Part shown: in pieces, positions 1-37,717 of the stretch
Numbering within the stretch: the first letter of the stretch is position 1
Layout: every line of letters begins with the position of its first letter
Origin: Candidatus Jordarchaeum sp. LHC_1308
GTDB taxonomy: Archaea > Asgardarchaeota > Jordiarchaeia > Jordiarchaeales > Freyrarchaeaceae
Reading direction: 5' to 3'
DNA length: 48,677 nt
NCBI GenBank assembly: GCA_019057675.1
Contig: JAHLWX010000003.1
Location: 1 to 48,677, forward strand
The notes under the pieces: model-generated
What the model was told of the DNA's origin: nothing
Database searches by the model: none
What the model saw: the letters and a program-made list of their open reading frames with translations, nothing else
Program-made: the position numbers and the translations under genes

Positions 1-540
1 CTGGCGAACATGGTTAAGGGTATAACTGAAACAATCAGCCTGCCGAGCTTAATTAACCTAGATTACGCAGACGTCCAAAGCGTCCTTAAAAACGGCGGGG
101 TAGCCATGGTCGGGATCGGAGAAGGAGAAGGGGAGAACAGAGTCGAAAGAGCAGTCAAAAGCGCACTAGATTCGCCGCTTCTCGACGTAGACATAACGGG
201 AGCAAGTGGTGCCCTAATACACGTCACTGGTGGACCAGATATGACTTTAACAGAAGCCACAAGAGCAGGAGAGCTAATAACTGAGAAAATGGTCGAGGAT
301 GCACTTGTAATATGGGGAGCACGCATTGACCCCAGTCTGATAGGAACAATAAGGATAATTCTAATCCTTACTGGTGTTAGTAGCCCCCAATTATTAGGTC
401 CAGCTGAGTTTGATAGGACGGGGCTGGAAGTCTTAAAGCCGCTTCCACTAGATGGAAGAAACAACTACTTTGAATCGCCATCTATTCTTTCGAGAAAAGA
501 GGAGGACGACGTGGAGGATCTAGGAATCCCGAAACTTTAA
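1..540 (+). CDS. ftsZ: Cell division GTPase FtsZ, C-terminal part (5' end lies outside the window)
   Basis: The frame is open from nt 1. The translation ...GITETISLPSLINLDYADVQSVLKNGGVAMVGIGEGEGENRVERAVKSALDSPLLDVDITGASGALIHVTGGPDMTL matches the conserved FtsZ C-terminal GTPase-activating domain. Confidence 0.9.
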   Translation: MANMVKGITETISLPSLINLDYADVQSVLKNGGVAMVGIGEGEGENRVERAVKSALDSPLLDVDITGASGALIHVTGGPDMTLTEATRAGELITEKMVEDALVIWGARIDPSLIGTIRIILILTGVSSPQLLGPAEFDRTGLEVLKPLPLDGRNNYFESPSILSRKEEDDVEDLGIPKL

Positions 541-714
541 ATATTTTTATTTCATTGAAAAAATTTAACGTTCATTATAAAAAGTTCCCTAAAATTGAAA
601 TTTGCTCCGCAATTTTCTACAATTAAAGGGGTTTATATTAAAGATAAAAAGAGAAAGTTAAGCATAATTAGAAAATTAGAGAATTTGTAATGTCCTATGT
701 TAACGTTAATATAT

Positions 715-1549: not shown

Positions 1550-2332
1550 TTACTTGTAAACCCATCTTAGATTCTTTATACCTCTGATGGCTTCTCCGCT
1601 ACCCGTAATGTTAATAAGCGTCACTTCCGTATTTCGTGCAAACCATTCTAAAAGAAGCTTAGCGTATTTTAGCTTCTTCTTTTTAAAGGGAGAAGCAGAG
1701 ACATCGTTTCTGTAGTCCGGTTTTGAGAAACGGCCGACTTTGTTGCCCAAATCGAATCCGGCTAAAAGAATGGTGTGCGACCCCATGGCTTCGGAGATGA
1801 AAACCGCCCTGTCGCCGTCAGTAAAACCGAAAAAATTGCGAATACACCCTAGTGGTTTGACTTGTGTCGTTCCGATAACGGGACCTTCAAGAAGACGAAC
1901 GTTATCCAGTAGGTGAATGTTATCGCCATGCGCATGGACAGCAATAATAGAACCTTTAGAGGAAGCATAAAATATGTCTTCTAACTTGCCGTCTAGGTCA
2001 GTAACTATTAGGTCGGGCTTAATACCTTTCTTTAGAAGAGCAGTTGTAGCACCGTCAGCAGCAACGTTTAAGCATGTCTTCTCAAGCCCCACTTTCTTAA
2101 TTTCTTCCAAGTTTCTTTCTAGCGATGGGCCACAGCCGTAAACTATGGCGCACCTACCCATGAATAAGTTCATCAGCATTTTCAGCGTGTTTTCTACGTC
2201 TTTCTCCCTAAGCAGAACATCGAGTTTTTCGGCTGCCTTCCTATCTTCCTCAACTTTAAAGCCAAAATCTCTAACTATTCTAGTATACCACTTCTCCCAG
2301 TCTTCGTATGTAACTCTAGGCGTTGCCTTCAT
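1550..2332 (-). CDS. mptE: 6-hydroxymethyl-7,8-dihydropterin pyrophosphokinase, archaeal MptE type (DUF115)
   Basis: DUF115-like motifs are present: VYGCGPS, ADGATTALL, LIVTDLDG, HAHGDN. The ORF track starts at 2377. The ATG at 2332 forms an ATGA overlap with the stop of the upstream kinase gene, so it is the more likely start. Confidence 0.7.
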   Translation of the reverse strand: MKATPRVTYEDWEKWYTRIVRDFGFKVEEDRKAAEKLDVLLREKDVENTLKMLMNLFMGRCAIVYGCGPSLERNLEEIKKVGLEKTCLNVAADGATTALLKKGIKPDLIVTDLDGKLEDIFYASSKGSIIAVHAHGDNIHLLDNVRLLEGPVIGTTQVKPLGCIRNFFGFTDGDRAVFISEAMGSHTILLAGFDLGNKVGRFSKPDYRNDVSASPFKKKKLKYAKLLLEWFARNTEVTLINITGSGEAIRGIKNLRWVYK

Positions 2333-3711
2333 CTCCCCTTCATAGCTTTTAACACTTCTTCCAGTTTTGGCATACAACTTCCCGAAGCCAACCTTTGAGC
2401 AGACAATGCGCTTGCTGTCATTCCAAAACGCGCACTTTCCATTAAACTGTTTCCATCCAAAATCGACTTAATGAAGCCGGCGAGGAAAGCGTCCTTCGCC
2501 CTACTTTCATTCAAAACATCCACGTCTATGCCTTCTATTTCCATAACGTCTTTCTTGGTGTAGAGAACGCAGCCACTTTTTATTCCCTTGAAAACAATTA
2601 AGCACTGCACCCCCAATTCGAGAAGGTGTGAAGTGTCGCCCACTTCCTTTGAAAGCGTATTCCAACCTCTTTCACTTAGAAGTAGAAAGTCGGTGTTTCT
2701 TAGTATTCCCTCAATGGATTTGTAGCCTCCTTCGAGGTAGAGTGAAGCAGGCTTGTAGAAAACTTTTACCTTACGTGTTTTTGCATAGCTAGCAATTAAT
2801 TCGCTTATTTCTTTAAACATTTCACAGATGCATACTGCCTTGGCATTTTTTATCATCTCCCAGTTTATCTCTTTTGGGTCTGAAATGGATAGAGCGGTCT
2901 TCGCTGTAGCCGTAACGTACGTTTTCCTTTGTCCCCTTTCAAATATGATCATTGTTCTCGGGGTCTGAAGATCCCGGTCAGTTATCAAGTTTAAGGTGTT
3001 GATCTCTTCTTTCATAAGCTCGTTAGCTATACGCCGCCCAAACATGTCGCCACCTATTTTTCCTGCTAATCCGACTTTGACGCCAAGCCTCGAAAGAGCT
3101 ATGGCTACGTTTCCACCTGACCCTCCCAAAGTCTCTCGGACATCATGAAGGAGACAGATCGCGGAAGAAGTAAGAGATTCACCATAAAGAAAATAATCGA
3201 TTGAAACGGCACCATAAACCATAACTTCAGGATCGAATGTCGTTTTCTGAAGCTTGGTTAATCCTCTGGCAACAGCGACTGAGAAAGCATTTTCAAGCTT
3301 TTCGATGTCCATGCCTTTTCTAAGACAGAGCTCCGTTATATTGTTTAAGTAGGATCTGAGTAATTCCTCAAGAACTTTCTCCAAGTCTGTTGATGGAAGG
3401 TGTCGTTTGAACATTAAGAGAAGCCAGCGACCAATATCAGTAGGCTTATACCATATTGTGTGTTTTCCCTCCTGAACTCTGTATTCTTCTTCCAAGACTC
3501 CCAGCCGAACTAAGTTTTTTAAATGAAAAATGATAGTTTTGTTGGAATGTTTTAACTGTCTTATTATGTCTTTTTGAGCTTGAACCCCGCGGTCTATCTT
3601 TTCCAGTATTTCAAGAGTTATAGGAGACCCGAAAACTTCAAGCAGAAAAGTTCTTAGGTCATGGGGATCTGCCGGGAGAAAGAGGAGATAAGGCCAACTT
3701 TCACCCATCAT
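2329..3711 (-). CDS. Winged-HTH domain fused to a PfkB/ribokinase-family carbohydrate or nucleoside kinase
   Basis: The N-terminal ~110 aa look like an ArsR/MarR-type wHTH. The remainder carries PfkB signatures (GGSGGNVAIALSRLGVKVGLAGKIGGDMFG and a C-terminal DxxGAxDAF-like KDAFLAGF). It has ATGA overlaps with both neighbouring genes. Confidence 0.7.
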   Translation of the reverse strand: MMGESWPYLLFLPADPHDLRTFLLEVFGSPITLEILEKIDRGVQAQKDIIRQLKHSNKTIIFHLKNLVRLGVLEEEYRVQEGKHTIWYKPTDIGRWLLLMFKRHLPSTDLEKVLEELLRSYLNNITELCLRKGMDIEKLENAFSVAVARGLTKLQKTTFDPEVMVYGAVSIDYFLYGESLTSSAICLLHDVRETLGGSGGNVAIALSRLGVKVGLAGKIGGDMFGRRIANELMKEEINTLNLITDRDLQTPRTMIIFERGQRKTYVTATAKTALSISDPKEINWEMIKNAKAVCICEMFKEISELIASYAKTRKVKVFYKPASLYLEGGYKSIEGILRNTDFLLLSERGWNTLSKEVGDTSHLLELGVQCLIVFKGIKSGCVLYTKKDVMEIEGIDVDVLNESRAKDAFLAGFIKSILDGNSLMESARFGMTASALSAQRLASGSCMPKLEEVLKAMKGR

Positions 3712-7495: not shown

Positions 7496-8080
7496 ATGGC
7501 CCTTGACGAAAAAACAGCAAAAAAACTTGTTCGGATGCTTCAACAAATAGAGGACACCACGAAGCTTGAAGGTGTGGCAGTAGTGACTAGAGACGGAGTA
7601 AGAGTTGCGTGTGCGGAGTCTGCAAACGTTGATGTAGATGTTATTTCAACGGCGTCAGCGGCAATAATAAATACAAGTGAAGCAACGGCTATGCAGCTAG
7701 GGCATGGAAATCTCTCTGAAATAATTATAAAGGGAGACTCCGGGTACCTACTCATAACGAGAGTTGATGACGAACACATGATGGTTGCATCAAGTAGAGA
7801 CACAATAAGATTAGGTTTAAATTTGGGAGTTCTTAAACGGTATTCACGCTCAATAGCCGAGCTTTTCGCTCAAGCTAAAGCCAAAGTGACGGCGCCAATA
7901 ACAGCTCCACTCGTCACAACGATGCCACAACCACTGCAAGCGCCTTCTATGGCTAAAGAAGAGGCTGTCAGCGACAAAGACGCCATTTTTGAAGCACTTA
8001 GAGCATTGGGACTTGAGGATGCTGTCACCGAAATCCGATCTCAAAGCAAGAAAGCAGTCGAGAAAGCTGAGAGAATATAG
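7496..8080 (+). CDS. Roadblock/LC7 (MglB-like) domain protein with an Ala/Pro-rich and acidic C-terminal extension
   Basis: The pattern LEGVAVVTRDGVRV...SAAIINTSEATAMQLGHGNLSEIIIKGDSGYLLITRV is typical of the Roadblock/LC7 fold. Confidence 0.7.
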   Translation: MALDEKTAKKLVRMLQQIEDTTKLEGVAVVTRDGVRVACAESANVDVDVISTASAAIINTSEATAMQLGHGNLSEIIIKGDSGYLLITRVDDEHMMVASSRDTIRLGLNLGVLKRYSRSIAELFAQAKAKVTAPITAPLVTTMPQPLQAPSMAKEEAVSDKDAIFEALRALGLEDAVTEIRSQSKKAVEKAERI

Positions 8081-23345: not shown

Positions 23346-24408
23346 ATGGTGATTTATGTGCCTAAAAGTATTCCGCCGGAAGGCATGAAAAGAAAGGTGA
23401 TCATTAAAAGTGAGGATGAAACTAGTGAAGAGTACGGTAAACACCCTAGCGAGAGGAGCGTAAAAGAACTTTTAGAGGGATGCTTCGTGAACATAGATAA
23501 GCCAGCAGGCCCAACTAGCCATGAGGTCTCATCTTGGGTAAGGAGGATTTTGGGCTGCTCGAAGACAGGACATGCCGGGACACTAGAACCCCTTCAGTCC
23601 CTTGGAGGGGTGGTGAAACCCTAAGGTTACTGGAGTCCTGCCGGTGGCGATAGGTTCTGCCACAAAGATCATACAGGCCCTCCATCTTATAGGAAAAGAA
23701 TATGTTTGCGTTATGAGGATGCATGGGGACGTCGAAGCTGAAAGAATTCAAAGGGTTTGTAAGGAATTTACTGGGCTGATTTATCAGAGACCACCAATAC
23801 GCTCTTCGGTGAAACGCAGACTTAGAATAAGACGAATATATTACCTTGACGTGCTCGAAGTGGAAGGGAGAAATGTCTTGCTAAAAGTAGGATGCGAGTC
23901 TGGAACTTACATAAGGAAGATCTGCCACGATATAGGGGAAGTGTTAGGCTGCGGAGCTCATATGCGCGAGCTTAGGAGGACTCGAAGTGGACCCTTCACC
24001 GAGGAGAACATGGTAACATTGCATGATTTAAAAGACGCATATGTTTTTTGGAAAGAAGAAAGTGATGAGAAGTACCTTAAAAAAGTATTATTACCAGCAG
24101 AAGAAGGAGTCCGTCACTTGCCCAAGTTTTTCGTGAGAGACTCGGCTGTCGACGCTATATGTCATGGAGCGGACCTGGCGATTCCCGGAATTGTCAAGTT
24201 TGAAGATGGAGTGGAGAAAGGCGACATGGTTGCAATTTTGACTCTAAAGGGGGAACTTGTGGCTCTTGGTGTTGCCATGATGACCGCGGAGGAAGTCATA
24301 AAAGAAAAGCGTGGAATAGCTGTTAAAACAGCAAGGGTAATAATGGACAAGGGGACATACCCAAAACTCTGGAAAAGCAAGAAGAGCAACTATTCAATCG
24401 AGCAATGA
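23346..24408 (+). CDS. cbf5: tRNA/rRNA pseudouridine synthase Cbf5 (H/ACA RNP catalytic subunit), split by a 31-nt intron: join(23346..23586,23618..24408)
   Basis: Track ORFs 23346..23624 and 23644..24408 are the two halves of Cbf5, in different frames. Removing 23587..23617 gives ...[24 protein letters not shown]..., the TruB/Cbf5 catalytic-Asp motif. The product is 343 aa. The C-terminal PUA domain is present. Confidence 0.9.
23587..23617 (+). other. BHB-type intron in cbf5 (31 nt)
   Basis: Structure: CACU[AGA]ACCCCUUCA-gucccu-UGGAGGGGU GGUG[AAA]CCC. The central 4-bp helix pairs 23581-84 with 23612-15 (3 Watson-Crick pairs and 1 G.U). Two 3-nt bulges flank it. The inner helix is 9 bp (23588-96 with 23603-11). 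Cleavage after nt 2 of each bulge gives CUA G|AC CCU. Confidence 0.8.
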
Positions 24409-24485: not shown

Positions 24486-24791
24486 TTGAAGTATCCTAAA
24501 GTTAGGCGAACCTACTGCCCACGATGTAAAGCACACACGGAGCACACGGTTAGTGTCTATAAAAAAGGTAAAGATAGGACGCTGGCTGCAGGGGCTAGGC
24601 GTTATGCGAGGAAAAAGCGGGGTTATGGAAGTCAACCTAAGCTCCTCTACATTTTGTAGAGGAGGGGCAAGCCCGTTCAGAGAGAAATTGCGAAGACCAC
24701 CAAGAAAGTTAGCTTTAAGCTTAAGTGTAAGGAGTGCGGCCACATAATTCACACTAGGGGTATCCGCCTCAAAAAAGCTGAAGCAGTTTAG
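24486..24791 (+). CDS. rpl44e: 50S ribosomal protein eL42 (L44e), split by a 30-nt intron: join(24486..24640,24671..24791)
   Basis: Not in the ORF track as a single ORF. My hand translation is [52 protein letters not shown]|[39 protein letters not shown]. Both CxxC pairs are present. TTG start with a GGAGGG SD-like element upstream. The unspliced frame hits TAG at 24657-24659. Confidence 0.85.
24641..24670 (+). other. BHB-type intron in rpl44e (30 nt, in frame, carries a TAG stop)
   Basis: Structure: ACCU[AAG]CUCCUCUAC-auuuu-GUAGAGGAG GGGC[AAG]CCC. The inner helix is a perfect 9 bp (24642-50 with 24656-64). The central helix pairs 24635-38 with 24665-68 (2 G-C, 1 G.U, 1 A/C mismatch). The outer helix is weak. 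Confidence 0.7.
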
Positions 24792-26031: not shown

Positions 26032-28518
26032 TTATGGAGATGCACTCACTTCAATATTGATTTCCCTTGTGAAATCAGGTATAGATGTCACTATTTTTAG
26101 AGGGACGATTTCTCCACTTTTGAAGCTCTGACCGCTGGTGAAGAAAATGCTAGCAGTCTCTCCGGGCCTAACGGAGATAGTAGAAATATTGCATAATGTG
26201 CCGTTAACGTAGATGGCTGTTACGTTGAAGGAAGTTAATCCAGTATTACGAATTTCCACGGTTCCGCTTCCATTGGTATAAACGCTTGCATTTGTAATTT
26301 CCATAGTTGCATTTAGTATCGAGTAATCAATCTCATAGATCTTTACCAAGTGGTTGCTGGATATGAATACTGGTTTAAAGTGCTTCAGGACACTAAAACC
26401 GTACTTCCACCCCGGGTACCATCCGGGTGGGTTTTCCACCTCATCATAAGAGACCACAAGTGGGCATTTATTTTGATCCATATAAGTATGGAGAGCATAG
26501 TCTAATATTTTTTTAGTATAGTAGGGGTATACGTCCGGCGATGGGTCATGGTAGTAGAGAAGTTTGTAGAGAGTCATATTGAAGAATTTAGGCGTGTAAA
26601 TAGTACCTGTCAGTGTTGGAATGTAGTACTCGTATTCCCAAGGCGTGTGGAAGACGTCAAAGGATATCCTAGCCATCCATATCCATTTTCCTTCGTCCCC
26701 GTGAAGGTTAGCATCATTATGTCCGAAGTATACTAGGACATGCGTAGCGTTAAAGCTGCGGAGTATCTTTAAGCTTTCTGTCTCATTCGTGGCGGTTAGT
26801 GCTTGGCCGACAAGGGCTATCTGCGTGGTGTTAAGTGTAGCATTGTCGACTATGGTTGTTTTGTTTCCTCTAACCATGATCCAATACCCGTAATCCCACC
26901 AAGAAACCACTATAGCGTCGGCAGGTAATTTGTTCTGCATGAAAATAAACGCTTCTTCCCAGTCAAAGTAGAAGTTTCCGTATCGATCCCTAGGGACAAA
27001 TTGTGGAGTACCAGAGTAAACAGCTACAGTCATGCCATGAGAGAACGAAAAAAATAACATGAGTCCTGTTATGACTAGGACTGCAACGGCGGATTCTCTT
27101 CCCAAGATACGCTTTACAATGACTCGTCTTCTCTTAACAGTTATCCTTCTTTCTCCCAACACTAGTTTTGAAAGCGGATCATATATTGAGGAAAGAGCAA
27201 ATCCAGAGAGTAAACATGCTACGGGAGTAAACATGGCTATAAGACGAACCATGGATGCAGCCATATAAACAGTAGTTGCGCCTAGAATTATGAGAAGAAG
27301 ATCTTCATCTCGCCTTCTCTGGAAGGCAAAATACATTCCTGCGGGGAACAGCACGAGTGCTATGTGCAAGTCATAGAAGAACATGCTCCATGATGTTGTA
27401 GCATGCTCAGCGACACTAGACACTATAACCTCTTCTTTCCTATAGAACGGGTTAATAACCGAGAAGTACCGTCCACTAATTTGAGTGATTGAATTGATGC
27501 TGTGCGATAAAGCTAACAAGAAGAACGGGTTCGTATAGGATGCAACTGTCACTACTGCTAGGATCACGATTGTTAGGATAGAGATGGCCACAGCAGTGTT
27601 GCGCCTGTTCTTAATTAGAGCGTGAAGTTTAGGTGCCTTGACAGCAATTGTTTCGTAAAAGGAGACTAAAGTAGGTTTAATGCGGGGATATGCTTCCCAC
27701 ACTATCAGGGCAACTAAGACAAGCATTGCAAGCATACTATTGCTTGAAACCAAGTAATTACTACCGTGGAATGGAACCCTTGTTCCTATGAAAACTCCAA
27801 TTAAAATCGTAATGCTGTAAGTCATCAATAAGTTTGTTGAATATCTTTTCATTAAAATCAAGAGTATGACAGTAAGTGGGTAAACGTATAGCAAATAAAT
27901 GGAGGCACCCCAGCTTGCTATAAAACCACCGAGGGCTAAGCCAGCAATAAAGGCTGAGGGAATGGATCCTTTCTTCATAGATCTTATAAAGAAAAGGAGG
28001 GAAAGCACAAAGAAAAATAAGCCAACGCATTCGTTGTCGACTAAACCTGCGATCATCCGTTCTATGGCTCCCGGCAGGAAGGAGAACAGGAAAGAAGCAA
28101 TTAGCCCAGCTTTATTGTCTAACACTTCGCGTCCAAGGAAGAAGACGATGATGCATGATGCTGCCCCCATTACGGCGGGAAGAAAGTAGCATACCATGTG
28201 AATGTTGACGTCAAACCCAATAGTTCTCAGCAGGAAGAAGAGAGCAGCAGCCGTGAATGGTACGCCGGGAAGGAAATTTTTGGACATATCTAAGCCGTAG
28301 GGATACCACATCATCGGGTTGTACCATCCGAACCATGCGGAGTAGCCATAAATAGTTATGAAGGCGGCGTTGTAGAACTGTATAGTTGAATCGTAATCGG
28401 AGATGTATGGAGGGTAAATGAAAAAGGGGTAGAGCCTTAGCAGAAAGGCTAGGAGCGTAATTAGTGAAACGCTTAAGGCAAGAAAAAGGACGCGTCTATC
28501 TATTTTAACTTTAATCAA
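26032..28518 (-). CDS. aglB: Archaeal oligosaccharyltransferase AglB (STT3 family)
   Basis: 828 aa. It has a polytopic N-terminal domain, the WWDYGYW catalytic motif and a soluble C-terminal domain. Confidence 0.9.
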   Translation of the reverse strand: MIKVKIDRRVLFLALSVSLITLLAFLLRLYPFFIYPPYISDYDSTIQFYNAAFITIYGYSAWFGWYNPMMWYPYGLDMSKNFLPGVPFTAAALFFLLRTIGFDVNIHMVCYFLPAVMGAASCIIVFFLGREVLDNKAGLIASFLFSFLPGAIERMIAGLVDNECVGLFFFVLSLLFFIRSMKKGSIPSAFIAGLALGGFIASWGASIYLLYVYPLTVILLILMKRYSTNLLMTYSITILIGVFIGTRVPFHGSNYLVSSNSMLAMLVLVALIVWEAYPRIKPTLVSFYETIAVKAPKLHALIKNRRNTAVAISILTIVILAVVTVASYTNPFFLLALSHSINSITQISGRYFSVINPFYRKEEVIVSSVAEHATTSWSMFFYDLHIALVLFPAGMYFAFQRRRDEDLLLIILGATTVYMAASMVRLIAMFTPVACLLSGFALSSIYDPLSKLVLGERRITVKRRRVIVKRILGRESAVAVLVITGLMLFFSFSHGMTVAVYSGTPQFVPRDRYGNFYFDWEEAFIFMQNKLPADAIVVSWWDYGYWIMVRGNKTTIVDNATLNTTQIALVGQALTATNETESLKILRSFNATHVLVYFGHNDANLHGDEGKWIWMARISFDVFHTPWEYEYYIPTLTGTIYTPKFFNMTLYKLLYYHDPSPDVYPYYTKKILDYALHTYMDQNKCPLVVSYDEVENPPGWYPGWKYGFSVLKHFKPVFISSNHLVKIYEIDYSILNATMEITNASVYTNGSGTVEIRNTGLTSFNVTAIYVNGTLCNISTISVRPGETASIFFTSGQSFKSGEIVPLKIVTSIPDFTREINIEVSASP

Positions 28519-32301: not shown

Positions 32302-32924
32302 CTTTCCCAGTAGCGCCCCCTCCTTTCGATTTCCCACATTTTCTCTATAACTTCATTCGCTTCTTCGAAAGTTTCCCTATAACCTTGAAGAACCGCGCTG
32401 AACCCTTCTTCAAAGACGTCATAATGACTGCTCTCCATTGCCCGCTTCATCAGGTGAAGGTCAACCCCCAAATCTTCAACGTTCCTCGAAAAGTCTCCAA
32501 GCCCAAAATCAATGAAAAAAATTTTCCCACCACTAACGATCATGTTTGAAGTTGTTAGATCTCCGTGCACTATGCCTTCCTTGTGAAGCCGTCCTATTAA
32601 CTTGCCTACTTCACGCAACAATCCGACTAGTTCTTCACGTGACAATTTTCTTTCCTTTATGAGGTCGCTTAGAGTTTTTCCATCGATATAATCCATAATT
32701 ATGGAGGTAGATTCCAAATTGATAAGGTAAACTGTGGGTGTTGGAACGCCAGCTTTTTTGGCGCTGTGGAGCAAGCGTGCCTCTCTAACGACCCTCTGTT
32801 TTCTCAAGTTGTCATCGAGTTCTTTAATTCTGTATAACTTGGGTTTACGCTCCTTAACGATAACTTTTTTCCCCGAGATGAAGTCAAGGAAAAGATGAGC
32901 TTCAGCTCCTTTTTTAATAATCAT
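32298..32924 (-). CDS. bud32: KEOPS kinase/ATPase Bud32
   Basis: Small RIO-like kinase with KGAEA, VHGDLTTSNMI and IDFGL motifs. It has an ATGA overlap with kae1. Confidence 0.9.
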   Translation of the reverse strand: MIIKKGAEAHLFLDFISGKKVIVKERKPKLYRIKELDDNLRKQRVVREARLLHSAKKAGVPTPTVYLINLESTSIIMDYIDGKTLSDLIKERKLSREELVGLLREVGKLIGRLHKEGIVHGDLTTSNMIVSGGKIFFIDFGLGDFSRNVEDLGVDLHLMKRAMESSHYDVFEEGFSAVLQGYRETFEEANEVIEKMWEIERRGRYWER

Positions 32925-33917
32925 GATGTCTCACCTTTGACCCATGAAACTTGAACTTCATCAAGACGCCACTTTGGCTTCACGTAACTTTCCTCCATCA
33001 TTAAGGTTCTTCCACTGATATACTCAAGTATTCCCGCCCAAGCTATCATTGCTCCGTTGTCTCCTGCTAGCTGCGGAGGAACCACGTGAAAAGAAGCACC
33101 ATGCTCTTCAGCTACCACCCTGATCATTTCTTGCAGTCTTCTGTTCCTGCCAACGCCTCCTGTTAGCAGAACGCTGTCCTTACGCGTATGCGCCAGAGCC
33201 CTTTCAGTAACCTCGGCTAACATGGAAAAACATACTTCTTGAACACTGTAACATAAATCTTCAGCTTTGCAACTGCCAATCTTGCCAACTGCAGCAGTGT
33301 AAACCCCTGAGTAGGAAAGATCCATTCCCTTGACAACATATGGCAACGAGACAAACACACTCCCTTTATACGCCAACTCTTCAATCTTAGGCCCACCGGG
33401 ATGCCTTAAGCCCAGCGCCCTAGCGAACATATCTAACATGTTCCCAATGGCTAGATCAAGCGTTTCCCCAAATATACGATACCTACCTTTCTCGTACGCT
33501 GCAACTAAAGTGTTTCCTCCTGAAACGTACAACGTTAGGGGATCTTCAACGTTTTCTGTAAGGCGGCCAATTTCAATGTGGGCCAGACAGTGATTAACAC
33601 CCACTAAGGGAACGTTAAGTGCCAGCGAGAGAGCTCTAGCAGCTGTCGCCACAGTCCTCAAACATGGGCCTTTAGGGGCTTCCTAACCCCGGCCCTCGAG
33701 AGAATGCGACTAAGTTAATCTCACTTATTTTAATGCCTGCCTCGTTTATGGCAGAGATAAGCACTTGCCTAACTACATTCGAGTGGTGCTGTGCGGCTTC
33801 CCTAGGGTGGATTCCGCCTTCAGCGGGTACATATTCATCTCTGACGTTCGCCAAGATCTCGCCTTCACTACTTACCACACCTACACCCAACGTGTGAGCG
33901 GTTCCTTCGATACCCAT
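32921..33917 (-). CDS. kae1: tRNA t6A synthesis protein Kae1 (KEOPS catalytic subunit), split by a 13-nt intron: complement(join(32921..33671,33685..33917))
   Basis: Track ORFs 33672..34169 (real start at M85, MGIEGTAHTLGV) and 32921..33661 are the two halves, in different frames. Removing 33672..33684 gives ...[43 protein letters not shown]. The product is 327 aa. Confidence 0.9.
33672..33684 (-). other. BHB-type mini-intron in kae1 (13 nt)
   Basis: Minus strand: GGGCC GGGG[UUA]ggaagcCCCU[AAA]GGCCC. The outer helix is 5 bp (33695-91 with 33670-66). The central helix is 4 bp (33690-87 with 33677-74, 3 G-C and 1 G.U). There is a 3-nt 3' bulge. The 5' site lies in the terminal loop, so there is no inner helix. 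Canonical cleavage gives GGG UU|A GGC CCA. Confidence 0.75.
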
Positions 33918-33972
33918 ACATAGTAGGCGGTGGCCGCATAAAGCCGTTCTCACGAATTTCAGTGTAGCGCTG

Positions 33973-34182
33973 TCAGCTCTCCTCATTCTCCTTGTCCTCA
34001 TCCTCTTTTTTCTTTTCTTTAGCTTCCCTAACATACTCCGTGTATCCGCACCTTCCGCACGTGTAGCGGCGCCAGTGCTCCGCCATAAAGACGCCTGGTC
34101 CACACCTAGGGCAGAACCTTTTGGTACGAACCAGTCGACCATCAACGATCTTGTAATATTTGCTAACACTCATTGTCGACAT
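33973..34182 (-). CDS. rps27ae: 30S ribosomal protein eS31 (S27ae)
   Basis: The zinc-ribbon sequence [26 protein letters not shown] is typical of the family. Confidence 0.9.
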
Positions 34183-35915: not shown

Positions 35916-36329
35916 TTATAAAATTTCCCCATCAAGAATTAAACGATTTTTCTGTCTCAAATAAATTACAGGCACACCAATCTGCCTGAGCCGCTTGCGA
36001 AGCACAGCATCATTAGTCGCTACAATGCAACGCTCCTTACTGGCATACTTAAGAATCAAGTCATCCACGCCTTCGCCTTCAACCCCCGGCGGGCAAACTC
36101 TAAATCTCCCTTTCTCAACGAATGCTAAAGCCGCCTCGGCCAGCTTCCCCTTCCTTCCACCTTTTTCAGCTAGTCTCCTTAACTCGTCAAGCACACAATC
36201 CAAAACTACAACTTCGTAGCGTCTATCGATAACTTGACTAAGCTCCGAAAAAATATCTTTTCCAAGCAGAAATGGAGCAATCAGAAAGTTGCTGTCAACT
36301 ACAACTTTAACGTACGATTCCCCATCCAA
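35916..36329 (-). CDS. PIN-domain endoribonuclease (Fcf1/Utp24-like, COG1412-type)
   Basis: PIN acidic residues are present (VVVDSNFL, DCVLDEL, ATNDAVL). It occupies the conserved slot between aIF2-gamma and rpoE'. Confidence 0.75.
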   Translation of the reverse strand: MDGESYVKVVVDSNFLIAPFLLGKDIFSELSQVIDRRYEVVVLDCVLDELRRLAEKGGRKGKLAEAALAFVEKGRFRVCPPGVEGEGVDDLILKYASKERCIVATNDAVLRKRLRQIGVPVIYLRQKNRLILDGEIL

Positions 36330-37565
36330 TAAGTCTCCACCTTCCTGAAACCATTCGATTCACAGCCACTCTCTGACCGCACTCAGCACACACGGGGCGT
36401 CGCAACACTACCTCGACTTCGTCGCTTTTAATCGACGAAACGGTACCAACGGTCACTGCTGACCCAACATTCAGCATCAATGTTTCATTAACACGCACTT
36501 TTTCCACCTTAGAGAGCTCCTCGCTTCCCACGACGCGCTCCATTAGGTGAAGTTCAATGCACAAATCGTTACACACAGGTGGAAGTGTTCCAGGAGCACC
36601 CACAACATTTCCAATCAAACCATCGGCTTTAGTCAAAGAAGGATCCAGCAGTGTACCAATACCGATTAGTCCACCCGGCAAAGCTTCATTGAGTGGTACA
36701 TCACCAGCATGCAAACTTACAACATCAGTATAAATAGGCTCAAACCCACCCTTGACGGCGGCACCTGGTCGAATTTCAATCTCATCTCCAACCTTAACTC
36801 TACCCTGAACGATCGTACCTCCAATAACGCCTCCAACAAGATCCTCAGGTCTAGTCCCCGGCTTATTCACGTCAAATGACCTTGCCACATACATCCTCAT
36901 GGGCTTACTTGGGTCTCTGACAGGGTTAGGGATGCGTTCCTCCATAAACTGCAGCAAAACATCCAAGTTAGCGCCAAAAACAGCTGAAACAGGAATAATA
37001 GGAGCATCCTCAGCAAAACTACCTCTAATAAATTCTTTGATCTGCCTGAAATTTTCTAACGCCTTCTCTCTAGAGACAAGTTCGACTTTATTCTGAACAA
37101 TAACAATGTTCTTCACGCCAACGATTTCCAAAGCAGCAAAATGCTCCCGAGTCTGTGGCTGAGGACAGGGTTCATTAGCAGCAATAACAAAGACGCATCC
37201 ATCCATCAGCGACGCACCCGACAGCATCGTCGCCATCAGCCGCTCATGACCGGGCGAATCCACAAAGCTAATCTTCCTTACAAACTCAGCATCGCTCCCA
37301 CATTTAGGGCATTTCCATCCCCCAGCCATAGCCAAAGTAAAGTAACAGTCAGGAGGCGGGCACGACGGGCATTTCAAAACAATAGCATCAGCGTAACCCA
37401 GTTTGATCGTAATACCACGACGTTGCTCCTCACTATGACGGTCAGCCCAGACGCCAGTCAAAACATGAACAAGCGTTGTTCTCGGCCCCTCCGGCATCAG
37501 CCGCAGGGCTTACCGTGATCAACATGGCCCGCTGTGCCAATCGAAACCAAACTCTGCGTTCTCAT
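36307..37565 (-). CDS. eif2g: Translation initiation factor aIF2 gamma subunit, split by a 29-nt intron: complement(join(36307..37480,37510..37565))
   Basis: The track ORF (36307..37497) lacks the P-loop. Upstream, a 19-codon exon reads MRTQSLVSIGTAGHVDHGK. Removing 37481..37509 gives ...[39 protein letters not shown]. The product is 409 aa. Confidence 0.9.
37481..37509 (-). other. BHB-type intron in aIF2-gamma (29 nt)
   Basis: Minus strand: CGGU[AAG]CCCUGCGG-cugaug-CCGGAGGG GCCG[AGA]ACAACG. The central helix pairs 37515-12 with 37486-83 (3 G-C and 1 G.U). Two 3-nt bulges flank it. The inner helix is 8 positions with one G/G mismatch. Cleavage gives GGU AA|A ACA (Gly-Lys-Thr). Confidence 0.8.
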
Positions 37566-37717
37566 AGCCTTCTCGTAAGCCTCACCCAACAAAATACCCC
37601 CTTTTTCAAATTTTTAGAAACACCATGAAGAACACTTTATTTAAAACTTTCCAGCTAAACTCATACTCCACCATTATGAACCGATTAGAATTTGTTATTT
37701 AATTTGAAACGGAAATC

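Follow-up and report, generated by a model that had tools for sequence, protein, structure and literature searches.

In the Asgard archaeon Candidatus Jordarchaeum sp. LHC_1308, the gene rpl44e, which encodes the ribosomal protein eL42 (L44e), is interrupted by a 30-nt insert that contains a stop codon and that would, judging from sequence comparison, be removed at the RNA level by the bulge-helix-bulge (BHB) pathway (probability about 0.9). We analysed the gene within a stretch of 48,677 nt (contig JAHLWX010000003.1 of assembly GCA_019057675.1, positions 1 to 48,677 of the forward strand; hereafter the window), where it belongs to a gene cluster conserved in archaea that comprises cbf5, rpl44e, rps27e and eIF2α, with nop10 and STT3 on the minus strand. 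The putative intron would extend BHB mRNA introns to a host gene and a phylum in which they are new, and within that phylum it appears conserved across a class.

The rpl44e gene extends from a TTG start at 24486 to a TAG stop at 24789-91 (24486..24791, plus strand). Its frame runs through ...RGYGSQPK into LLYIL and meets TAG at 24657-59, after which the same frame resumes and continues to KCKECGH...AEAV. An earlier reading of this DNA, made from the letters alone (the sequence-only reading), had described a 30-nt in-frame insert with this TAG in the eL42 frame, and we confirmed it to the base. When both flanking AAG triplets are taken as bulges cut as AA/G (the slash marks the cut), the insert covers 24641..24670, or 30 nt; a shift of the boundaries by at most 2 nt inside the AAG repeat would leave the product the same. 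The features of the gene are as follows.

24486..24640, plus strand: rpl44e exon 1, ...GYGSQP and the AA of the Lys codon (open reading frame (ORF) translation, Pfam PF00935 and alignment with eL42 in the PDB)
24635..24638, plus strand: exonic 5′ strand (ACCU) of the central helix, made up of the last base of the Gln codon and the whole Pro codon; it pairs with GGGC at 24665-68
24639..24641, plus strand: 5′ splice-site bulge AAG, with a cut predicted at 24640/24641 by the bulge rule of PMC2738675
24641..24670, plus strand: putative rpl44e intron, GCUCCUCUACAUUUUGUAGAGGAGGGGCAA; 10-residue gap relative to eL42 structures, homologous inserts in 12 other Jordarchaeia sequences
24642..24664, plus strand: intron hairpin (h′), a 9-bp stem with loop AUUUU (fold and covariation)
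24657..24659, plus strand: in-frame TAG in the 3′ arm of the stem, where unspliced translation ends at 57 aa
24665..24668, plus strand: intronic 3′ strand (GGGC) of the central helix; GGG[C/U] in 13/13 sequences though non-coding
24669..24671, plus strand: 3′ splice-site bulge AAG, with a cut predicted at 24670/24671 and no conserved outer helix closing it
24671..24791, plus strand: rpl44e exon 2, from the G of the Lys codon to ...AEAV and the stop TAG

Comparison with homologues confirms the insert at the protein level. A phmmer search against PDB chains matched eL42 of Sulfolobus-type, Pyrococcus, Haloarcula and eukaryotic ribosomes, and in the four best of these alignments the gap between QPK and PVQ measured exactly 10 residues, within the conserved eL42 segment GYG(G/S)Q(T/P)KP. 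Removal of the insert would give a protein of 91 aa (...GYGSQPK-PVQRE...) that keeps all four zinc-ribbon cysteines, and the Pfam Ribosomal_L44 score is 99 bits for the spliced version vs 78 bits for the unspliced one. Gene callers give L44e only as N-terminal fragments of 56-58 aa and in one case of 86 aa, from an upstream start.

The RNA elements named in the sequence-only reading, a perfect 9-bp hairpin with AAG bulges and a central helix of ACCU with GGGC holding three pairs and one A/C mismatch, are all present. The stem joins CTCCTCTAC (24642-50) to GTAGAGGAG (24656-64) in nine perfect pairs, to which a possible A-U pair would add a tenth, and the central helix consists of C-G, C-G and U.G pairs and the A.C mismatch. 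In this arrangement, a 4-bp central helix separates the two cleavage sites and the intronic helix h′ closes a 3-nt 5′ bulge, whereas the outer exon-exon helix that would close the 3′ bulge in a strict hBHBh′ motif is missing. With no conserved outer helix, the motif can be placed only in the relaxed HBh′ class, which heterotetrameric enzymes accept (PMC5829648) and to which the sequence-only reading had assigned it in view of the poor outer helix.

We propose that, in the transcript, the 9-bp hairpin of the intron stacks on a 4-bp helix of exonic (A/G)CC(U/C) with intronic GGG(C/U), which would expose the 5′ AAG as a 3-nt bulge and place the 3′ AAG right after the helix, in a relaxed HBh′ motif. 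The tRNA-splicing endonuclease, presumably the (αβ)2 enzyme with a broad-specificity loop that is reported from Asgard archaea, would cleave after the second base of each bulge, and an RtcB-type RNA ligase would then join CCU AA to G CCC. The ligated mRNA would be translated into the 91-aa eL42 and the intron would be released, probably as a small circle, while unspliced mRNA would yield only the 57-aa fragment owing to the in-frame TAG.

Published work on related systems supplies the parts of this scheme. Cuts fall between the second and third bulge residues in the crenarchaeal cbf5 work, in which relaxed mRNA motifs were tied to cleavage by a heterotetrameric endonuclease (PMC2738675), and Kaneta et al. 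2018 reported that Asgard archaea have an (αβ)2 EndA with the L1 (Crenarchaea-specific) loop and broad specificity (PMC5829648). Because introns were found in 92-95% of the tRNA genes of a complete Freyarchaeia (= Jordarchaeia) genome, many of them at non-canonical positions (PMC11291895), abundant substrates for this endonuclease were already on record in the lineage. The window offers no tRNA intron for comparison because neither Rfam at gathering thresholds nor ARAGORN gave a match in it.

Conservation and covariation of the insert in Jordarchaeia

We collected relatives by a genome scan with the spliced protein (one genome per GTDB species), a metagenome scan, a protein search with the 57-aa ORF and contig look-ups. 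The genome scan gave three close loci, all from Jordarchaeia/Jordarchaeales metagenome-assembled genomes (MAGs), one of which is labelled only 'Thermoproteota'; nucleotide identity of the window to the three closest loci was 82%, 78% and ~70% over 3-6 kb (82% over 6.3 kb for a Jordarchaeales MAG), which places the window in Jordarchaeia. Overall, 13 distinct sequences, from two families of Jordarchaeia, carry the insert at one and the same codon; the counts below refer to them. Eight of them, including the window, form clade A, with the context cbf5-rpl44e. The remaining five form clade B, with the context PriL-PriS-GINS-rpl44e; their nearest named relatives are Candidatus Jordarchaeum, Jordarchaeaceae and 'Freyarchaeota', and their eIF2α shows ~59% identity to that of the window. 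No insert was present in 14 other Asgard, Methanomethylicota and Nitrososphaerota rpl44e loci.

The length of the insert varies (30, 29 and 33 nt in four sequences each, 34 nt in one), which puts exon 2 out of frame wherever it is 29 or 34 nt long (five sequences). The unspliced frame stops at codon 57-63 in every sequence, at TAG, TAA or TGA, and some clade B copies contain two in-frame stops. A predicted cut after the second bulge base nevertheless restores GYGSQPK-P(V/I)Q in 13/13, including the 29- and 34-nt inserts, with 5′ cuts at AA/G, AA/U or AA/A and 3′ cuts at AA/G or AA/A. The predicted products, of 91-95 aa, carry both CxxC pairs. The comparison supports the cleavage CCU AA/G CCC giving QPK-PVQ that was put forward in the sequence-only reading. 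In the four 29-nt variants, the stem or a bulge is off by one base.

In a further contig from Jordarchaeaceae (L035; JGI Ga0187770_10295330, 419..694), rpl44e is uninterrupted and reads CCU AAG CCA at the junction, which is the predicted ligation product. Over its 1.26 kb this contig is 83% identical to the intron-bearing locus L025, and it represents either a precise intron loss or a transcript-derived contig.

To count base pairs, we aligned the 13 sequences with MAFFT and imposed a structure of central helix, bulge and stem. Standard pairs occupied 93.9% of cells, compared with 46-58% when the partners were slid by 1-3 columns. Five of the nine stem pairs showed compensatory (two-sided) changes, in 18 cells, with 92-94% of cells paired, and the covariation score was reached by 0/500 shuffles. 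The central helix was paired in 98% of cells, and its intronic strand GGG(C/U) is constant although it is free to vary.

The coding sequence on both sides of the insert is constrained as well. Compared with the window, the clade A sequences differ by 17-28 synonymous vs 2-6 non-synonymous codon changes in exon 1 and by 8-18 vs 4-7 in exon 2. On these counts, exon 2 evolves under purifying selection in the predicted post-splice frame. Because exon 2 would otherwise be untranslated, its synonymous excess is evidence that the spliced frame is expressed.

Chance expectation bears differently on the parts of this evidence. The window holds four distinct perfect 9-bp hairpins, counted as six overlapping matches, where Markov-1 simulations gave a mean of ~2 and a maximum of 6, and a 9-bp hairpin taken alone is statistically unremarkable. 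The fold of the 50-nt segment has a z of -3.96, with 0/200 shuffles folding as well, and that of 81 nt of the rpl44e region has a z of -1.65 only. What goes beyond chance, in the sequences compared, is the placement at the exact codon gap plus the conservation and covariation across all 13.

One annotation difference was noted beside the gene in clade B: rps27e was not called in loci L025, L026 and L027 (~3320..3530), and it was called at the same position in L024, L028 and L029; the difference may reflect a gap in gene calling or another interruption.

Objections and alternative explanations

Several observations weigh against removal of the insert by the BHB pathway. Free-energy folding by itself fails to recover the central helix of rpl44e: in the 50-nt fold, GGG is paired instead with CCC further downstream, in competition with the central helix, and RNAalifold favours an exonic GGGUU/AGCCU hairpin. 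This failure weakens a purely thermodynamic argument, and it matters less because the motif is recognized by an enzyme. The central helix of the window has only three pairs and the A.C mismatch; the other 12 sequences have four full pairs, and the mismatch is peculiar to the window because the Gln codon CAA is used there instead of CAG. Changes in the central helix are one-sided only because its 5′ strand consists of Gln-Pro codons. No outer helix adjoins the 3′ bulge and none is conserved across the 13 sequences; the distal pairing suggested by the 81-nt minimum free energy (MFE) fold, 24617-21 with 24672-76 (GCGGG/CCCGU), was rejected with 68% of cells paired in relatives. Neither the splicing endonuclease nor the ligase was found in the 48.7-kb window, in a scan of 30 of its ~57 ORFs that left out the ribosomal protein cluster at 9.4-23.3 kb. 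Lastly, an exact look-up of ten spliced eL42 products among ~15 billion proteins found none present, an absence that, together with the fragments reported by gene callers, also bears out the view of the sequence-only reading that an intron hides rpl44e.

Programmed translational bypassing of the phage T4 gene 60 type would need no RNA splicing: ribosomes would take off at AAG 24639-41, slide across the hairpin and land at AAG 24669-71, giving an identical protein. The identical AAG codons that flank the insert of the window, the stable hairpin that starts directly after the first of them and the AAA...AAA flanks of five clade-B sequences are what such a mechanism would use. However, 5/13 sequences pair an AAU take-off with an AAA landing codon, which would entail mismatched re-pairing and Asn in place of an invariant Lys, and one more has AAG/AAA, so matching codons are not a constant of the insert. 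The codon after the take-off site is CUC, CCC, CUU, CAC or similar, and a stop follows 4-10 codons on rather than immediately. The exon is complementary to the conserved intronic GGG(C/U), which would have no role in hopping but is just what a BHB motif requires, and neighbouring inserts share the architecture without matched flanks (AGA/AAA in cbf5 and ACA/AAA in EF1A). We consider bypassing very improbable. Translation of the insert itself, by UAG readthrough or with pyrrolysine, would produce an eL42 with 10 extra residues, LLYIL-X-RRGK, an alternative that the sequence-only reading had named as needing a test. Its length does permit this in the window and seven relatives, where it is a multiple of 3 (30 or 33 nt), but the 29- or 34-nt inserts of 5/13 sequences shift the frame, and the stop varies among TAG, TAA and TGA where a kept frame with a single conserved UAG would be expected. 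Moreover, the 'peptide' of the insert is not conserved, whereas the RNA stem covaries; TAG ends rpl44e itself and 9/57 window ORFs; and the eL42 structures have their 10-residue gap in the conserved segment GYG(G/S)Q(T/P)KP. The pyrrolysine (Pyl) system was reported absent from Jordarchaeia (Sun et al. 2021, PMC9723677), and no pylTSBCD gene was found among the 30 window ORFs scanned. Contradicted by the insert lengths and mixed stops of the relatives, readthrough is extremely unlikely.

A dead or dispensable gene would be the outcome if rpl44e had been inactivated by the insertion of a short palindromic element of DNA that duplicated an AAG target, with eL42 supplied by another copy or not needed. 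The AAG...AAG flanks do resemble a 3-bp target-site duplication around a palindrome. Against inactivation, the interruption has been kept across two families whose eIF2α is ~59% identical, and the two exons have retained their reading frames, the four Cys and an excess of synonymous changes. No second rpl44e was found in three Jordarchaeia assemblies, in which the scan pattern QPKPVQRE matches only an uninterrupted gene. We consider this explanation very improbable. The insert may have begun as a small palindromic piece of DNA that duplicated a 3-bp target on insertion, an origin that would be compatible with present RNA splicing. An assembly or sequencing artefact has in its favour only the general possibility of such errors in metagenome assemblies, and its probability is negligible: the insert was recovered, in diverged sequences, from independent NCBI, ENA, JGI and Logan assemblies, and the window contig itself is present in JGI, ENA and Logan assemblies, with the hot-spring datasets JGI 3300017406, SRR7539952 and ERZ27245635 containing this genome.

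Relation to known systems

The closest precedent for a BHB intron in rpl44e mRNA is the crenarchaeal cbf5 intron (Watanabe 2002; Yoshinari 2006; Yokobori 2009, PMC2738675). The two share a short intron in a translation or RNA-modification gene, a BHB or relaxed BHB motif, the cut between the second and third bulge residues, varying length, lineage-specific gain and loss, mis-annotation as a split or frameshifted gene and a host with a heterotetrameric endonuclease. They differ in the gene and in the phylum, the crenarchaeal case belonging to Thermoproteota and not to Asgard archaea, and the splicing of rpl44e is a prediction from sequence comparison. Unlike crenarchaeal cbf5, the rpl44e intron of the window is also in frame and without an outer helix.

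Relaxed HBh′ tRNA introns (Marck & Grosjean 2003) resemble the rpl44e insert in size range, in the central 4-bp helix, in one well-formed bulge and the intronic helix and in the presumed enzyme, an (αβ)2 EndA with the L1 loop (PMC5829648). Non-canonical relaxed tRNA introns are abundant in Thermoproteales and Freyarchaeia/Atabeyarchaeia (PMC11291895). In rpl44e, by contrast, the substrate would be an mRNA with no tRNA body to aid recognition, and the exonic strand of the helix must also satisfy the coding sequence.

The gap in phage T4 gene 60, likewise a short untranslated stretch within an ORF, opens with a hairpin and, as in the window, has identical codons at its edges; rpl44e departs from it in having unmatched flanks in 5/13 sequences, no stop after the take-off codon and a conserved intron-exon helix. 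Pyrrolysine recoding in Sifarchaeia and methanogens (PMC9723677) shares with rpl44e an in-frame UAG within an Asgard gene; the Pyl machinery, however, is reported absent from Jordarchaeia, and neither the identity of the stop nor the frame is conserved in rpl44e.

Yokobori et al. stated that splicing was unconfirmed for any archaeal gene but cbf5 (PMC2738675), and a 2025 paper still references archaeal mRNA introns only via three cbf5 papers (PMC12397907). In the open-access and bioRxiv literature searched, we found no report of an rpl44e intron or of Asgard mRNA introns, including those in cbf5, aIF2γ and aEF1α described below, nor of the kae1 interruption.

Further interrupted genes and their significance

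A first loose scan of the window, combining a BHB motif with ORF joining, yielded false positives in the hundreds, both at the borders between genes and in antisense frames, and stricter criteria were then used. The following interruptions were identified in addition to that of rpl44e.

23587..23617, plus strand: candidate cbf5 intron, 31 nt; central helix CACU/GGUG, bulges AGA and AAA, outer helix GGG/CCC; its removal restores GHAGTL-D-PKVTG
37509..37481, minus strand: candidate aIF2γ intron, 29 nt; central helix CGGU/GCCG, 5′ bulge AAG; its removal restores the P-loop GHVDHGK-TTL
38525..38559, plus strand: candidate aEF1α intron, 35 nt; outer helix CCU/AGG, central helix GGGC/GCUU, bulges ACA and AAA, 10-bp stem
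33683..33671, minus strand: kae1 interruption, 13 nt, GGAAGCCCCUAAA, with boundaries ambiguous within GG, between the ORFs 33672..34169 and 32921..33661

The cbf5, aIF2γ and aEF1α introns fold as hBHBh′ in unconstrained MFE predictions, with the 3′ bulge of aIF2γ reduced to one base, and removal of each turns two partial Pfam matches into one that is essentially full-length. The cbf5 gene (23346..24408, plus strand) is interrupted between letters 1 and 2 of the catalytic Asp codon, a site also reported for Crenarchaeota, and each of the nine further clade-A Jordarchaeales loci examined (seven distinct sequences) has the intron too, at 27-35 nt. In aIF2γ (~37589..36307, minus strand), intron removal extends the GTP_EFTU match from profile positions 44-187 to 3-187. 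The aEF1α gene (38240..39576, plus strand) is split directly after DAPGH by an intron with a perfect stem and a fold z of -4.9; without it, the protein has 433 aa, with a single GTP_EFTU match (profile 1-180 of 188) plus the C-terminal domains. The same intron is identical in three other assemblies of the species (L037-L039).

The gene kae1 (TsaD family), which is followed by a Bud32/RIO-like kinase ORF, is interrupted as well. Removal of 13 nt restores GPGLG-PCLR and a single full-length TsaD match. The local fold, a stable one, comprises a GGGGUU/AGCCCC hairpin, a UAAA bulge and a GGGCC/GGCCC helix, in which the canonical BHB cuts do not lie 13 nt apart. We rejected a canonical BHB intron, for which no canonical geometry with a stable helix yields the required 13-nt removal; the interruption may reflect a frameshift, an error or else a micro-intron cleaved in a non-canonical way.

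Altogether, at least four of ~57 genes in the window are interrupted (cbf5, rpl44e, aIF2γ and aEF1α), with kae1 as a possible fifth, and the sites are the catalytic Asp of Cbf5, the P-loop of aIF2γ, DxPGH of EF1A and GYGSQPKP of eL42. Because these four or five genes all belong to translation or RNA modification and are hit at highly conserved motifs, mRNA introns may be common in the lineage. A genome-wide spread of endonuclease-dependent (BHB) introns into the protein-coding genes of Jordarchaeia has, in our estimate, slightly better than even odds.

If the proposal is true, an archaeon closely related to eukaryotes would need mRNA splicing of the tRNA type to make its translation apparatus, and the cbf5 intron, which occupies exactly the nucleotide position known from Crenarchaeota, would be ancient or else mobile. 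Archaeal mRNA splicing has been established only for cbf5 in one phylum, to which rpl44e would add a ribosomal protein gene of Asgard archaea; with the neighbouring introns, it suggests that tRNA-type mRNA splicing can be common near the eukaryotic stem. There are practical consequences as well. Fragmented calls of essential genes can distort completeness estimates, marker phylogenies based on L44e, EF1A, aIF2γ and Kae1, and metabolic or eukaryotic signature protein (ESP) inventories of Asgard MAGs. The short, defined substrates would further provide a tractable system for the recognition of relaxed motifs outside tRNA by the (αβ)2 endonuclease, in which one could also ask whether splicing gates production of the translation machinery.

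A search for N-terminal EF1A fragments returned mostly contig-end partials. One candidate among them that lies on a long contig, locus L036 of another MAG (GCA_019056785.1, DXJV01000084.1, ~1770..1800), was rejected as an EF1A intron in view of an in-frame TGA at the Gly of DxPGH. This EF1A-like gene reads FTIIDTP-stop-HRDFFKNM and is called as ORFs of 92 and 363 aa; the TGA could be recoded, or the gene could be a paralogue or a pseudogene.

Two other genes of the window are 'eukaryote-like' genes typical of Asgard archaea, in keeping with the taxonomic assignment, one for a Roadblock/LC7-domain protein (7496..8080, plus strand) and one for the oligosaccharyltransferase STT3/AglB (26032..28518, minus strand), which adjoins nop10.

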